From: Promethearchaeota archaeon
Lineage (GTDB): Archaea; Asgardarchaeota; Lokiarchaeia; Sigyniarchaeales; Promethearchaeaceae
Direction of reading: 5' to 3'
Assembly: GCA_016933055.1 (NCBI GenBank)
Contig: JAFGBS010000032.1
Location: 1 to 32,000, forward strand
Length of the DNA: 32,000 nt
Both the position numbers and the translations under genes were made by a program. Of the stretch, positions 11,991 through 21,422 are shown in pieces. The notes beneath the pieces are model-generated. The model was not told the DNA's origin and made no database searches. It worked only from the letters and a program-made list of their open reading frames with translations. How positions within the stretch are numbered: position 1 is the stretch's first letter; the number at the start of each line of letters is the position of its first letter.

Positions 11991-12401
11991 TAATAAAATA
12001 AAAGTAGAGAATGTTGCACTGTCAATTTAGTTCAATTAAATATTGGAATGTTTTTCATTCCTTGACCCAGCGGATAATAGGTTTATCACATTATTGCTGA
12101 TTAGATAGATTTAAATAGAACTATCACCGTCTTTATTACATTAAAAAAATACGCGAATTGAACTGCACATGATAATCATCACTCAAAATTATTCTCTCAT
12201 GCCACCCACAGTGGAAGGAATCAATATTAGTGCAGTTCCATTTTTTGTATGGTATTGCTGCCTTGATTGTTAGAATTCGGATTCATATATTCAATTCATG
12301 GCCTTATCTTCTTAGTATGCGACTTTGATGCGAAAAAGATCAGATTTCAGGAGTTAAACTCTCCTCGCATGCTTAAAAAACTAAAAAAAAGTGAGCTATT
12401 C

Positions 12402-13652
12402 ATGGCGGAACCAATTATCGGAAAGGTGAAGGACCACCACCAAACAGAAGTGGTAAATTCTCAGAGCAGTCAAAAAGCTAAATTTGGTAGAAATGTGACC
12501 TTGTTTTATATCATTCAGTTTCTTTCAGGTTTACATTTCATAAGTGGCGTTCTCTTACCATTTTTCATAGAATGGGGCGGAATCAGTTTTAGTCAAGTAA
12601 TGTTTCTCCAAGCGATATTCCTCGGAGCAGCTTTTCTACTTGAAGTACCCACCGGCACAATTGCGGACTTTTTTGGTCGAAAGCACTCCATGATGTTGGG
12701 ATTTATTGTCACATTTATCGGTGCATTGATCTACTCTAGTGTCCCGAAATTTTGGATCTTCGTAATAGCGGAGAGTTTATGGGCACTTGGAGTAGCATTA
12801 CTAAGTGGTGCACAGGATGCGTTTTTATATGATACTCTAAAAGAAATAAACCGAGAACAAGATAGTAAAAAAGTGTTCGGTAGGACAAGGAGCATCTCAT
12901 TAGTAGGCATTCTTATAGCAGCTCCTATAGGATCCCTTATCGCATCCACATTGGGATTACGTTATACTATGATGCTAATGACAGTTCCTCTTGGAAGTGC
13001 AGCCTTATTATGTTTGTTTTTAAAAGAACCCGATATCCACAGAATTGAGCAGAAACAAAAATATTTCCAGATCATCAAAAATGGATTTATCCACATACAT
13101 ACATCCCGAACAATCAAGATCCTGGCAGTAGATTTACTCGTGACATCTATACTAGCATATTTTGTAATTTGGACAAACCAGCAAAGGTTGATCAACATAG
13201 GAATCGATGGATCATACTTGGGTTACATCAACATGATTTGGCTTGCGGTGGAGATATTGGTGTCAAACTCATTCGTCACCCTAGAAAAAGTACTGAAATC
13301 TAAAAAATCTGTGGTGTTTTTTACCACATTTTTTACGGGAATAGGATTTATACTGATGTCAATTACTCAAAATGTTTCCATTGTGGTCTTTGGGATTATG
13401 TTAGCCGCGGGATTTGGTTTAGGACGCTGGGTCTTAATGATTCACTATTTAAATAAACACATTCCCTCAGAACAACGAGCAATGATCATATCTACAATTG
13501 TGATGTTTAAGCAACTTGCACACGTAATGATAAATCCACTAGTTGGTTTTTTAGTTGAATGGAATTTAGTAATTGTTCTCCTCATACTAGGAGGTCTTTT
13601 GATAGTATGGAGCATTATAAGTCCAGTTAAAGAATCCCATTTGGTAGATTAA
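12402..13652 (+). CDS. MFS transporter
   Basis: EVPTGTIADFFGRK (motif A) and 12-TM pattern. ATG at 12402 (MAEPII) is preferred over TTG at 12267. Confidence 0.9.
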   Translation: MAEPIIGKVKDHHQTEVVNSQSSQKAKFGRNVTLFYIIQFLSGLHFISGVLLPFFIEWGGISFSQVMFLQAIFLGAAFLLEVPTGTIADFFGRKHSMMLGFIVTFIGALIYSSVPKFWIFVIAESLWALGVALLSGAQDAFLYDTLKEINREQDSKKVFGRTRSISLVGILIAAPIGSLIASTLGLRYTMMLMTVPLGSAALLCLFLKEPDIHRIEQKQKYFQIIKNGFIHIHTSRTIKILAVDLLVTSILAYFVIWTNQQRLINIGIDGSYLGYINMIWLAVEILVSNSFVTLEKVLKSKKSVVFFTTFFTGIGFILMSITQNVSIVVFGIMLAAGFGLGRWVLMIHYLNKHIPSEQRAMIISTIVMFKQLAHVMINPLVGFLVEWNLVIVLLILGGLLIVWSIISPVKESHLVD

Positions 13653-13711: not shown

Positions 13712-14950
13712 ATGGCGAATCTCACTTTAGAACTATGGCGTTCTTCCAAGCGGAATCGGAAATATGCAAGAAATATTTGGCTATTATATGGGATATCATT
13801 TTTTAACGGAATGCATTTCGTTTATGCATTGCTAATTCCCTATTTTGTGGATTGGGGTGGCATAACATTTCCCCAGATCATGAATCTGCAAAGTATCTAT
13901 ATGATCACTATTTTTCTGACAGAAATTCCTCTTGGAGTAGTATCCGATTGCGTTTCTAGAAAACTCTCACTTTCATTAGGATTTTTAATAACCATTGCAG
14001 CAATTTTATTCTATTCCGCTATTCCCCGTTTTTTCTTGTTTGTGATTGCCGAAATCCTCTGGGCTTGTGCTACTAGTTTAATTTCGGGAGCAGATCGCGC
14101 CTTAATGTATGATTCTTTGATAAAATTGACTTGGAAAAATAAAGAAAGAAATAGTTCCAATTCCGTTTCTGTCTTTGGTAAATATACTAGTTTTAATCTT
14201 ATAGGTTTTCTAATTTCAGCCCCGATCGGTACCATAATCTCAATATATATGGGATTACGGGCAACTATGATGTTTATGATAATTCCCGCGGGAATTGCAT
14301 TCATTAGTACGTTATTTCTAATTGAACCGGTCAAGTTAAAAGATAGAATGACAAAACCGTATTTGAAATTGATATTTTCAGGTTTTCAATCAATTTGGAA
14401 AAATACAGGATTCCGGACTCTTGTCTTGGATGATTTGATAGTAATTTGTCTGTGTAATCATGTGGGCTTCAGCTACCAGCAAAAGCTAAGAATTCTTGGG
14501 ATCAGTGATAGTAATTTTGGTTGGATTTTCATGATTTACATCATTTTTACTATAGTAGGTTCGAATATACACACTCCTCTGGTAAAAAAATTTCACAACA
14601 GAAGAAAAATACTGTTCTTTACGACACTCGGAGCAGGAATGGGTTTGATTATTTTGTTTCTTAGTAATACGCTCCTCTGGATGATAATTGGTATGATTTT
14701 AGTTGCAACTTTTGGAATTACCTATGCAACAGTAAGAATGGGATATTACCAATCTTACATCTCATCTGATCAGCGTTCCACGATCATTTCTACTATTAAT
14801 ATGATTCGACTACTTTGGTTAAGTGGAATTAATATATTAGTGGGATTTTTGTCCAAAATTGATTTATCTTTAGTTTTTATAATCTTTGGTGGTGTTTTAA
14901 GCATATGGGCATTTATTTCACCAATAAAGGAAGAGTATTTGAAAAATTAG
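13712..14950 (+). CDS. MFS transporter, tandem paralog of 12402-13652
   Basis: Colinear similarity with the upstream gene (FxDWGGItFxQxMxLQ, EIPxGxxxD, SGAxxAxxYDxL, QRxxIISTI, SPxKE). Confidence 0.9.
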   Translation: MANLTLELWRSSKRNRKYARNIWLLYGISFFNGMHFVYALLIPYFVDWGGITFPQIMNLQSIYMITIFLTEIPLGVVSDCVSRKLSLSLGFLITIAAILFYSAIPRFFLFVIAEILWACATSLISGADRALMYDSLIKLTWKNKERNSSNSVSVFGKYTSFNLIGFLISAPIGTIISIYMGLRATMMFMIIPAGIAFISTLFLIEPVKLKDRMTKPYLKLIFSGFQSIWKNTGFRTLVLDDLIVICLCNHVGFSYQQKLRILGISDSNFGWIFMIYIIFTIVGSNIHTPLVKKFHNRRKILFFTTLGAGMGLIILFLSNTLLWMIIGMILVATFGITYATVRMGYYQSYISSDQRSTIISTINMIRLLWLSGINILVGFLSKIDLSLVFIIFGGVLSIWAFISPIKEEYLKN

Positions 14951-15736: not shown

Positions 15737-16972
15737 TTAAGTTTCAAGTTGAATTTCTTCAAGGGTTTTGCCTTTGGGTTCATATTTGAGGATTAAAAGT
15801 GCAATCAATGGAAGTAAGGCAATAGCTGCTGCAATGAGATAATTCAACCGGTATGCCGAGAGTGCTTCGGGAGTAGCTGCTGCAGGTACAATTAATGCTG
15901 TGAGAATTGGTCCCACCACATATCCTACTCGAGATAAAGTTAAAGAGAACCCAACAGCAGTTGCTCGTATTTTAGTTTCAAACATTTCGGAGATATACAC
16001 TAATAAAAAGCCCAAGAACATACTCATAAAGAAATATACGAACACTAAGAATCCTAATCCAAAAACTGCCATAAATACATAACTAATCGCTGCTCCTGCA
16101 CTACTGAACAGGAAAGAGCCTATTCTTCCTATTTTATCCAAGACAAATCCAACCGTTAATGCACCTAGTATCGTCGAAAGCCCTGCAAAGGTGTAAATAG
16201 TATCAAATTTCTCAGGATCGAATTCTAGAACTTGTAAGTAGAAAATTTGCACTGTACCTGTGGCCATCTTAAATGCAACATTCCAACAAATGTAGATCAA
16301 ACCAGTTACTAAGACATAACCCCATTCTTTTGCTTTAAATGTCGTTAAACTACGCCAAAAATCCCCAATTGAGCGCTTATATTCATCTCGGTGAGTTCTC
16401 CAGCGATGAGTCTCTTTCATGGGGATCCATAATAATATTAGAACCAATCCAAAAATTCCCATGAATCCATAACTCCATTGCCACCCAAAACTGTCTATTA
16501 TTTTTGGACCCAATAGAGCATATAGTGGAATTAGTCCGATTAAAAATGCTAGACTCCCGTTTCTTCCTCGTCTATGCGCAGGACTTTCCTCAGCAACAGG
16601 GATTGTCCACATATTCACATTAGTTGCGAGAATTACTATAGCATAAAGCACCATGAATAACCACAAATTCAATGTACCTAGTAGACCAATAAGTACTGCA
16701 GCACCACCCATCAAAATCAGTAAAATTAAGATTCCAATCTTTCTACCCCATGCATCTGCGAAATACGAGATCACAAATACAAGGAAAGCTACTGCTCCAA
16801 AAATTCCTTGGAGGTAAAAGAAATAATTGTCTGCGATTCCAAAATGGGCTATAATCTCTGGTATCGCATTAGTTTCGATTAAACTAAGGTATTGATCAAC
16901 CAAAGCAACCAAACCCATTAGCACAACCAAATAAAAAATATACCCTCTGGATCTAACACGTTCTTCCGACAT
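15737..16972 (-). CDS. MFS transporter (sugar-porter/SV2-like motifs)
   Basis: ADAWGRK, AEESPAHRRG, DKIGR, SEMFETKIRATAVG and C-terminal EPKGKTLEEI. Confidence 0.9.
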   Translation of the reverse strand: MSEERVRSRGYIFYLVVLMGLVALVDQYLSLIETNAIPEIIAHFGIADNYFFYLQGIFGAVAFLVFVISYFADAWGRKIGILILLILMGGAAVLIGLLGTLNLWLFMVLYAIVILATNVNMWTIPVAEESPAHRRGRNGSLAFLIGLIPLYALLGPKIIDSFGWQWSYGFMGIFGLVLILLWIPMKETHRWRTHRDEYKRSIGDFWRSLTTFKAKEWGYVLVTGLIYICWNVAFKMATGTVQIFYLQVLEFDPEKFDTIYTFAGLSTILGALTVGFVLDKIGRIGSFLFSSAGAAISYVFMAVFGLGFLVFVYFFMSMFLGFLLVYISEMFETKIRATAVGFSLTLSRVGYVVGPILTALIVPAAATPEALSAYRLNYLIAAAIALLPLIALLILKYEPKGKTLEEIQLET

Positions 16973-17092
16973 GATGTATCACATCTCTTCGTATATAGAC
17001 TTTAGAGTATAAAATACTATCTCGTTCCCCCGAATGAATGCAATGGGGATGAAAAATAGGGACTTAGTTTTCACTACATATAATGAGATTTT

Positions 17093-17119
17093 CAACTTTT
17101 TGATTAGTCAACATCTATC
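17093..17119. repeat. Site L: degenerate arm + TTAG + perfect arm
   Basis: caacttttTGA-TTAG-TCAACATCTAT(C), read directly from the sequence. Confidence 0.8.
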
Positions 17120-17465
17120 CCGTGATGTCTAAAAATTTTTCATTAGGTGTACAGAGGGTATATAGTACGAACTTCTGTTAATTTGGTACTGATATAGATG
17201 CCTCATGCTACGCATTCGGCTTTTGTTTTAGATCGGCTACCCTCCCAAGAGTCCGCACCAAGGACTAACCTATTCTACATCTGATCGGGGTATTTAAATG
17301 AACCAAGATGTGTTACAAATCGTGTTACTTATCCATCGCTTCGCTTGGATAGGCTTGCCTATCCATCCTAATGTAAAATCACATTTTGATTCCGATTTAT
17401 ACGTACCACGCTATTCTATGATGGTTTTAAGTAAATGGGTTAGTATATTGCACAGAAATACCCAC

Positions 17466-17491
17466 ATAGATGTTGATTAGTCAAATTTGTT
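17466..17491. repeat. Site M: perfect arm + TTAG + degenerate arm
   Basis: ATAGATGTTGA-TTAG-TCAAatttgtt, read directly from the sequence. Confidence 0.8.
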
Positions 17492-17511
17492 ACTATGGCA
17501 TTCTATCATCA

Positions 17512-17572
17512 AACTACGCTGAAAGCCTATTCCGTTATCCTACAAATGATTTCATAGGTTTTTTGCGTAGTT
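17512..17572 (+). other. Long stem-loop (19-bp stem, 23-nt loop)
   Basis: AACTACGCTGAAAGCCTAT pairs with ATAGGTTTTTTGCGTAGTT: 16 Watson-Crick pairs, 2 G-U and 1 U-U on the + strand. Confidence 0.55.
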
Positions 17573-17717
17573 ACGTCTAAAATCCATGAAATGCGTATAT
17601 TGAGTAACTCATAGGGTGGTTTGACAGTTATCCCAATTTCATAACGTAGATGTGTGGTAAACATTTGTATAGGCAATTACTTGCACGACCCTGCCTTAAT
17701 AAGCGTTTAAATGGCTA

Positions 17718-17744
17718 GATAGATGTTGACTAAATAAAATCTGG
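17718..17744. repeat. Site R: perfect arm + CTAA (inverted core) + degenerate arm
   Basis: (G)ATAGATGTTGA-CTAA-ataaaatctgg, read directly from the sequence. Confidence 0.8.
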
Positions 17745-17826: not shown

Positions 17827-18351
17827 TTATTCTTCATCACCTGTATCAGTTTCTACGATTTCTTTGATCTTAAAACGATTCACTAATTCCTTTTTACTTT
17901 TTCCATTTGATGCTAGTATAACCAGTCCCTCGTGATCTTGTATCCTTTCTAATATCCATGCAGTATCAGCATTCTCATACCTATCATGAGCGTCTTCAAT
18001 TTCCGTTCGTTTTCCAAATAGAGCATCCGCTTCATCAAATAATAGAATCCAATCTTTTCGTTCAGCTTTTGAAAATGCTTTTTTTAAACTTTTCTCGGTT
18101 TGTCCAACATATTTACTGATAACAGTAGCTAAATCTATTCGACAAAAGGGTGAACGGAGTCGGTTCTCCAAATAGGCTATGCCCTTCTCCCGTTTTGAAG
18201 GCGTACCCACAAGAAGAATACGTTTGGGAATAGTTTCTTTTTGTAGAATCGTGTTTATTTTTGCTTTTAGACTAGAGCTAGGGGTGTGTTTTTGGTGAAG
18301 TTTGCGGTTATTCGTTGATCGTATTCTCTCTGCAAATTTTCTGGATTTCAT
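17827..18351 (-). CDS. Stand-alone AAA-domain protein with degenerate Walker A (related to the eCIS/Afp15-type AAA C-terminal domain)
   Basis: RIDLATVISKYVGQTEKSL, WILLFDEADALFGKRTEIEDAHDRY and GLVILASN are retained. The Walker A position reads GTPSKREK. ATG at 18351 (TTG at 18369 is the alternative). Confidence 0.75.
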   Translation of the reverse strand: MKSRKFAERIRSTNNRKLHQKHTPSSSLKAKINTILQKETIPKRILLVGTPSKREKGIAYLENRLRSPFCRIDLATVISKYVGQTEKSLKKAFSKAERKDWILLFDEADALFGKRTEIEDAHDRYENADTAWILERIQDHEGLVILASNGKSKKELVNRFKIKEIVETDTGDEE

Positions 18352-18413
18352 ATTATCAGATTTCCCCAAGGCAATTTAAATTTCAGCAATAATATGCTAT
18401 TAAATACTCAAAG

Positions 18414-19996: not shown

Positions 19997-21422
19997 ATGG
20001 GTCTAGCGAATAAAACCGATAGAGATCGATATTCTATAGGAACTTATATTTCGATTTCGTTTAAATTTGATCACTGAATTTTTTCTCGCTGCATTCGGTA
20101 CAAGGGTATTTGATTACTACGAGAATGAAATTGGCCTGCAATCCATTTGGATTTCTGCAGCTTTCATGGTGTATGCAATCTGGAATATGTTTAATGATCC
20201 GATCATAGGGTATATTTCCGACAAACCTCGGCGATGGTGGCCTAAATGGGGTAAACGACGACCTTGGATCATGGCTTCTATAATTCCTTGGGGATTGACC
20301 TTCCTTTTATTATTCACTGTTCCCAATTTTAATCCAACTACCTCTGGCGGAGCAGTATCTTTATTTATGTGGCTCGTTGTAACCAGTATTGTATATGATA
20401 CATTTTTTTCCATATTCGGGACCAATTTTAATGGTCTGCTCCCCGAGAAATTCCGTACAGATGCGGAAAGAAGGCGACAAGCTTCTATTGGTATCGCATT
20501 CAGCACCGTAGGAATGGTTTTGGGGACTACTTTGCCAGGTTTATTTGGATCCTATCAAAATCAGTATTCATGGATACTAGGTGCGGCTGCTATTTCAGTT
20601 GTGGGAATCGCATTTGGAATGCTAATGGGACCGGGTACCAAAGAACCTCCCGACATGATAGAACGCGCAGAATTTTGCGTGGAAGAAGAAATTGAACATG
20701 AAAAATGCAAAAATGAAAAATCCCCTTTTTTTGATACATTGCGGAAAATTCTACGAGATAAAAATTACGTTGCCTATCTGATTTTAATCGTGTGCTACCA
20801 ATGTTTAGTTTTACTGATGGTTGGAACTATTCCATATTTAAATCGTTTTATTTTGAAACCTGCTCCTGTAGAACCTGAATCTCTATTATTTGTTCCACCT
20901 ATCATCGTTGGACTACTTTCTATTCCTTTTTGGCATTGGATTACGAAAAAAATCGGAAATGCTAAAATGGTTATTTTGGGTGGCACTCTAATAATTTGCT
21001 CGGGATTACCATTCCTATTCATTTCAAATACTATAACAATAATCGTTTTTATTTCAATTATGGGGTTGGGACAAATCGCTTTTGGATTACAACTTATGCC
21101 TATTCTCGCCGAAGTTGTGGATGAATTAGTTGTAAAAATCGGAAAAAGACAAGAGGGTCTTGTAATTGGAGTTCGCACATTCTTTGCACGATTTGGTTTA
21201 ATTATTCAAGCAATTACATTCGGATTAATTCATATACTTACTGGATTTGAACCAGCTAGTACGACTCAAGATCCTCTAGCTCTTATTGGATTAAGGATTC
21301 AGCTTGCTTTAGTCCCAACTATTATTATGACTATCGGTATCTTGTTATTTTGGCGAATGTACGACATCGATCCCACAAAAAAAAAAACAATTCAACGAAG
21401 ATTAGCCAAATTAAAACTATAA
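19997..21422 (+). CDS. MFS transporter, GPH/MelB-like, with an apparent frameshift near the 5' end
   Basis: The main ORF 20067-21422 has WNMFNDPIIGYISDK..WGKRRPW and AEVVDE...RQEG motifs. An upstream ATG at 19997 in another frame encodes MGLANKTDRDRYSIGTYISISF, which looks like the missing N-terminus. Confidence 0.8.

Follow-up and report, generated by a model that had tools for sequence, protein, structure and literature searches.

Upstream of a gene for an MFS transporter, three copies of an arm-TTAG-arm site lie between positions 17093 and 17744 of the window, which is the whole 32,000-nucleotide stretch of DNA, from a Loki-type Asgard archaeon, analysed here. The locus raises the question of what these sites, and the two segments that they bound, represent. 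The preliminary description favoured a cassette, shufflon or phase-variation module acted on by a site-specific recombinase, and named a tandem MITE with TA-flanked terminal inverted repeats and a triple transcription-factor operator as alternatives. The evidence below makes it highly probable that the locus is a tandem pair of orphan, TA-targeting MITEs of two families, in abutment and belonging to one genus-restricted superfamily.

Geometry and surroundings of the three sites

Site L has its core TTAG at 17104-17107, a perfect right arm, TCAACATCTAT, at 17108-17118, and a left arm at 17093-17103 that matches in 6/11 positions. Site M has a perfect left arm, ATAGATGTTGA, at 17466-17476, the core TTAG at 17477-17480, and a right arm matching 6/11. 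In site R the perfect left arm occupies 17719-17729, the core at 17730-17733 is inverted (CTAA), and the other arm again matches 6/11. The non-perfect arm of every site was recounted by hand, with 6/11 as the result each time. Over 16 bp, L (17104-17119) and R (17718-17733) are perfect inverted repeats of each other. On direct reading, the positions and arm matches of the preliminary description are correct to the base, and its parsing of the region as TA, 17107-17477, TA, 17480-17730, TA is exactly right.

The terminal 11-mer ATAGATGTTGA has exactly three exact copies in the 32-kb window, all inside 17108-17729. This count compares with a mean of 0.04, and none of 100 dinucleotide-preserving shuffles of the window reached it. 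The exact copies are the non-random part, because the enrichment is lost once one mismatch is permitted (three in the window against 1.14 expected).

The MFS transporter gene occupies 15737-16972 on the minus strand, with its start codon at 16972 (Pfam MFS_1, 3.6e-26). Its likely TATA box, as read from the sequence, is the reverse complement of TATAAA at 17009-17014 and lies outside the elements. On the other side of the sites is a gene for a small AAA-type ATPase (17827-18369, minus strand), assigned by Pfam (AAA, 1.1e-11) and a protein atlas, whose stop codon is about 95 bp from R. The element pair therefore sits between the AAA-ATPase stop codon (17827) and the MFS promoter, and it probably has no effect on the MFS gene. 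The earlier remark that no recombinase is present in cis is borne out, with neither a recombinase nor a transposase gene nearby. Four MFS-type genes are found within 9 kb (12267-13652, 13712-14950, 15737-16972, and 20067-21422) with a SAM methyltransferase gene between them, an arrangement suggestive of a variable region rich in transporters. Other products encoded in the window are ribosomal protein L37e and an LSM protein.

Three near-identical 11-mers upstream of a gene are what would be expected if one transcription factor controlled the MFS gene through three operators. However, the nearest site is about 95 bp beyond the likely MFS TATA box, and genome-wide the motif forms the last 11 bases of a repeat element, followed by YTA, beside unrelated genes. 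Since the motif always ends a repeat element and never stands alone upstream of related genes, the operator alternative of the preliminary description falls away, with a probability that we regard as negligible.

Two repeat families and their shared terminus

Unit 1 (17107-17477, plus strand) is a full-length, non-coding, 371-bp member of a repeat family, F1, and matches positions 2-380 of the family profile (nhmmer, E 1.7e-112). Its terminal inverted repeats, G-TCAACATCTAT-C on the left (17107-17119, plus) and C-ATAGATGTTGA-T on the right (17465-17477, plus), are perfect over 11 bp and agree in 12/13 positions when the flanking bases are counted. A search of its own genome with the region gave 39 matches, nearly all of them to unit 1. 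By BLAST and multiple alignment within this genome, F1 is a repeat of 350-420 bp with about 10 near-full copies and many partial ones. Unit 1 aligns end to end with nine other F1 copies, and the similarity stops at sites L and M; the homology of the other copies to the window starts at about 17097-17108. The copies closest to unit 1 are 82% identical, solitary, and located on contigs C6 and C22. The sole ORF of unit 1 (60 amino acids, 17298-17480) has no Pfam match and is not kept among the copies, whose indels have lengths not divisible by three.

Several features of F1 lie inside its ends. The left-end motif is repeated directly about 170 bp into the element, and GGATAG/CTATCC hairpins recur. 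In unit 1 the internal direct copy is TCTACATCTGA (17274-17284, plus), an 8/11 match within a conserved block of the F1 alignment, and other F1 copies carry internal ATAGATGTAGA matches. The internal motif and the hairpins may be extra protein-binding sites. A further hairpin, TATCCA...TGGATA (17330-17351, plus), forms an indel block that is present in only some F1 copies.

Unit 2 (17480-17730, plus strand) is a full-length, non-coding, 251-bp member of a second family, F2 (nhmmer, E 3.3e-52), a repeat of 250-290 bp. It is seemingly unique by BLAST, but alignment from its right end reveals a whole-length F2 member that shares its boundaries with 11 other copies. The right terminal repeat is G-ATAGATGTTGA-C (17718-17730, plus), and the left end, TCAAATTTGTT, corresponds to the one conserved in F2, TCAATTTTGTACCC. 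Across the family, the left end is conserved as TA-N-TCAATTTTGTACCC and the right end as ...GGGATAGATGTTGATTA. The terminal pair of unit 2 is imperfect (6/11), yet both of its ends are conserved within F2. Its closest copy, at C2:138574-138832, is 57% identical. The preliminary description was right that the interiors of the two units are unrelated: they belong to two different repeat families. Further copies of the motif and of both interiors, which it proposed to look for, are plentiful in the genome, with 78 profile matches for F1 and 41 for F2 (nhmmer).

Conserved blocks between variable stretches, with hairpins kept in both F1 and F2, might suggest that the units are structured non-coding RNA genes or regulatory RNA modules. 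Yet 12 F2 copies give a weak consensus fold (-13.5 kcal/mol), with a positive covariation term (+0.66), and the main F2 hairpin is kept by conservation and not by compensatory change. The region has no match in Rfam at E<=1 or in a tRNA scan. Moreover, the copies lie in either orientation to neighbouring genes, and one sister copy interrupts a gene paralogue. An RNA function of this kind is extremely improbable.

F1, F2, and at least one further family end in ATAGATGTTGA-Y and then TA. Followed by NTA, the 11-mer has 35 exact occurrences in the genome, or 84 if one mismatch is allowed, against 0-3 exact occurrences for six shuffled 11-mers. When the ends are sorted by their inner sequence, at least five different interiors turn out to close with the same 11-mer, the hallmark of several non-autonomous families that depend on one enzyme. 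Next to the exact terminal 11-mer, YTA is found in 34/52 cases in the genome. Beyond YTA, the outward flank has the consensus R-T-M-A-A-A; at positions 7-9, A is found in 56, 55, and 45 of 68 ends, the background being 32%. The preferred target is thus a loose AT-rich palindrome, TTKAY-TA-RTMAAA, that resembles the element end.

The flanks of the pair can be read against this consensus. The left target flank, TTTTTGAT (17097-17104), fits the genome-wide TTKAY adjoining TA. The TA to the left of unit 1 (17105-17106) is probably a target duplication, as judged from the YTA that follows the 11-mers of the genome and from the empty site described below. A single TA (17478-17479), at the centre of site M, is common to both elements, and a further TA (17731-17732) stands to the right of unit 2. 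The right target flank, AATAAAATC (17733-17741), is a partial fit to R-T-M-A-A-A. Before both insertions, the site would have read TTTTTGAT-TA-AATAAAATC.

These assignments also account for the imperfect arms. Read in this way, site L joins a target flank to the F1 left end, M brings together the right end of F1 and the left end of F2, and R pairs the F2 right end with a target flank. The left arm of L (TTTTTGA) matches 6/11 because the target flank mimics the element end, and the same preferred target accounts for the arm of R. The right arm of M matches 6/11 because the F2 left end stands there. Elsewhere in the genome, most element ends adjoin ordinary flanks that share only about five inner positions with an arm, and the complete arm-core-arm site is found only at element abutments, in six or more other places.

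How elements abut is evident from the spacing of facing end pairs. There is a spike at spacing 4, with eight pairs (six of them with NTAN) against 1-4 pairs at other spacings, and spacing 8 shows no such excess; abutting elements therefore share one TA and do not carry one each. The NTAN abutments at spacing 4 are at C2:130154, C6:401103, C9:17466, C17:540027, C27:107585, and C35:16174. The order of F1 and then F2 with one common TA recurs at C2:129920-130503. The members of that pair are not the closest kin of the window units, so the juxtaposition arose more than once.

The same recurrence, together with the perfect 16-bp repeat of L and R, could be taken to mean that the stretch from L to R (17105-17732) is one composite mobile element of 626 bp with M as an internal relic. 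This is very improbable. The 16-bp identity follows from both ends being of one superfamily, and the assembly holds no second copy of the whole 626-bp unit. In addition, the two F1-F2 pairs are not mutual closest relatives, unit 1 being closest to the copies on C6 and C22 and unit 2 to the one at C2:138574-138832.

Insertion into TA is supported by a paralogous empty site. The sole long paralogous segment in the genome pairs C13:17423-18276 with C4:4175-3322 at 80-89% identity (about 85%). The empty C13 sequence, ..gatatcat-TA-agcaaaaaattgc.., lies inside an intact 448-amino-acid ORF (C13:17372-18718) that belongs to no Pfam family. The filled C4 sequence reads ..gatattatt-TA, then a 221-bp element ending in ATAGATGTTGAC, then TA-gcaaaaaattgc... 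The insert (C4:3108-3328) is a member of a sister family, F3, and its left boundary agrees with the F3 alignment. The comparison shows an insertion with a TA on each side; it is paralogous and not allelic, and concerns a sister family and not this locus. The C4 paralogue of the ORF (C4:3045-4175), which carries the 221-bp MITE, is broken into short ORFs. A search for an empty site at an allelic or orthologous position gave none: the same-genus genome lacks a counterpart of the MFS region, and syntenic DNA there is only about 72% identical. The one intergenic spot common to both same-genus genomes has the end motif in both and hence is not empty. One F1 copy, C17:617756-618124, has perfect 12-bp inverted repeats with no TA on either side (..ATGAC, AGGTCA..), which is unexplained under TA duplication.

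Search for the mobilizing enzyme

Small size, lack of coding capacity, terminal repeats, dispersed copies with sharp boundaries, and, in the sister element, TA duplication all identify the units as MITEs, for which an autonomous partner was not found. All members of the superfamily end in R-TCAACATCTAT ... ATAGATGTTGA-Y. In the mechanism that we propose, they insert at TA, which is left on both sides. Having no gene of their own, the elements must have been moved in trans. A TA beside an existing element would be a good target, given that the preferred target resembles the element end. Because of this mimicry, elements would often accumulate in end-to-end stacks, in which the complete arm-TTAG-arm site arises, and the two units here would have come to lie head to tail with one common TA. 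The mover was most likely a TA-duplicating DDE transposase of the IS630/Tc1-mariner type. Since no such enzyme is in the assembly, the copies are probably orphan relics.

MITEs derived from IS630/Tc1-mariner elements include SM1 of Sulfolobus, mobilised by ISC1048, and Stowaway of plants. Like these, the units are small, non-coding, and multi-copy, have short terminal inverted repeats with TA on each side, and fall into several families with one terminus. Unlike them, they come from a genus in which no IS630-type transposase was found, and their interiors are unusually long (250-420 bp), with conserved blocks. The Correia or NEMIS elements of Neisseria are bacterial, measure about 100-155 bp, bear 26-bp repeats, and are documented to influence transcription and RNA processing. 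They resemble the present superfamily in being an orphan TA-duplicating MITE family abundant in one genus, intergenic and without a known host transposase, whereas the units here are archaeal and 371 and 251 bp long.

Searches for the enzyme covered both genus genomes. Neither has DDE_3 (PF13358), the NCBIfam IS630 model (NF033545), the TnpB zinc ribbon, or resolvase, for each of which positive controls matched. Models for mariner (PF01359) and pogo DDE_1 (PF03184) likewise have no match in either, a result of little weight, as no control genome matched them. The preliminary description had suggested seeking recombinase or IS630 genes flanked by the same ends, and neither genus genome has any. 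No end pair encloses a transposase gene; the end pairs that contain genes hold ordinary genes or an orphan ORF without fold or family signal. A search of the genome for multi-copy ORFs yielded no IS-like protein clusters. An autonomous element with the same ends was found neither in the two genus genomes nor in 400 genomes of the phylum nor by a 19-mer scan of 185,579 species, all within assemblies that are incomplete. The host genome is 3.76 Mb in 36 contigs and 91% complete, the same-genus genome is 76% complete, and several contigs break in repeats. A transposase could still lie in unassembled DNA.

The transposase-like genes that do exist comprise an IS4/IS5 pseudogene, one intact IS4/IS5 gene, and one IS110-type gene in the same-genus genome, and none is flanked by the motif. 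The pseudogene, on contig C8, was considered as a partner and rejected, as its surroundings lack matching ends. This 7.7-kb contig (3190-3495 and 6209-6649) carries the decayed IS4/IS5-type transposase gene and a frame for a 423-amino-acid tyrosine recombinase, and may be a fragment of an integrated element. The IS110-type (DEDD) transposase is an intact protein of 479 amino acids, encoded near a contig end (C37:8930-10369, minus strand, of the same-genus genome) with no MITE end nearby; no counterpart was found in the present genome.

Among relatives, DDE_3 transposase genes are present in 28/154 genomes of the order, including 4/13 in the family. The IS630 elements of these relatives were rejected as partners, because the ends examined (TA + TTTATAACGAC...) differ. 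In a sister genus, the left end of an IS630-type element (TA-G-AACATCGTGCCCGT) matches the F1 left end in 13/18 positions, a weak lead that involves one end only. A complete genome of the sister genus holds two 99.3% identical copies of this element, each of 1349 bp (C1:3348167-3349515 and C1:1233521-1234869).

The geometry of the sites also invites a reading as conservative site-specific recombination, in which a serine-recombinase-like enzyme would act in trans at the 26-bp 12-2-12 junction and produce circles or an inversion between L and R. Half-sites of 12 bp around a central dinucleotide are the geometry of invertase and resolvase sites, and the 12-2-12 junction resembles the hix sites of that group. 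The locus is also like the pdif modules of Acinetobacter plasmids, in which unrelated modules lie between arm-spacer-arm sites and no recombinase is encoded in cis. The target imitates the donor junction (TTGAY-TA-RTCAA), as recombination of attP with attB predicts; the single TA between neighbours suits a crossover point as well as a duplication; and the termini are far better conserved than the interiors. Against this, neither genus genome has a resolvase-family gene, in a search in which 12/14 control genomes were positive. The 4-bp spacer is too short for tyrosine recombinases, and the four such genes in the genome are all away from the motifs. Xer recombination uses a 6-bp spacer and requires both arms in full at each site. 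Unlike pdif, hix, and res sites, full two-arm sites occur here only at abutments, and the roughly 70 insertion sites, with only a loose consensus, are transposase-like and not att-like. Conservative recombination is therefore quite improbable, and the recombinase-driven module favoured in the preliminary description gives way to its own later alternative of a tandem MITE with TA-flanked inverted repeats, which is supported by the dispersed families, the shared terminus, and the paralogous empty site.

Distribution and significance

The 14-mer end has 34 occurrences in this genome, six in the one other genome of the genus, and no more than three in any of 398 further genomes of the phylum, which is the level of a reversed-pattern control. 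Across 185,579 species, the 19-mer left end matches the same-genus MAG only, apart from single chance matches. By these counts, the termini are confined to this genus among 400 Asgard genomes, and together with the L37e and LSM proteins of the window they place the host among the Asgard archaea. A metagenome scan with the 14-mer end, a motif too short for such a database, gave 120 unrelated single matches, none of them with F1 or F2 homology.

Exact look-up of the MFS protein returned one Logan contig, which stops inside unit 1, and look-up of the AAA protein returned no record. The runs that carry the region comprise two of DNA and none of RNA, one of the DNA runs probably being the source sediment sample. 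Assembled contigs of four public runs, a material that drops rare forms, have no inversion or excision joints and no indels across the region. In a 2017 hot-spring metagenome from a different study, short contigs are identical to the window between 15000 and 20000, one of them across site L, and the same or a near-identical strain was therefore present in a second sample.

No two F1 copies are more than 82% identical and no two F2 copies more than 73%, and unit 2 reaches 57% at best, yet all three termini here are perfect. Perfect ends on old copies are not predicted by simple neutral decay. Either transposition required the ends to stay intact while several master lineages diverged, or they are still under selection. 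At this locus the pair is probably without function, its neutrality being a matter that we infer, as is the order of the two insertions. It is also conceivable, though unlikely, that a new transposase or recombinase of the genus, missed by the family models, still mobilizes the superfamily and chooses the junction-mimicking palindromic target TTGAY-TA-RTCAA. Such an enzyme, if real, would explain the perfect termini beside interiors of 55-80% identity, one end for several families, and the lack of a known TA-transposase.

A survey of 2026 reported insertion sequences in Asgardarchaeota at a mean of 8.5 per genome, with IS630 among the archaeal IS families (PMC13343696). In the literature library searched, no paper describes MITEs in Asgard archaea.

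For annotation, the elements matter in that they fill many intergenic gaps, break contigs, and mimic recombination cassettes and palindromes, and the terminus ATAGATGTTGA-Y-TA accounts for all these patterns at once. Contigs that end inside F1-type repeats include C2 (1-82), C18 (1-87 and 2929-3013), C19 (54341-54542), C23 (17968-18137), and C35 (46126-46204), and the elements are therefore a main cause of assembly breaks in this MAG. A genus-restricted, multi-family set of TA-targeting MITEs without a partner is a small addition to the Asgard mobilome, and its shared terminus offers a means of tracing the missing enzyme in closed genomes.
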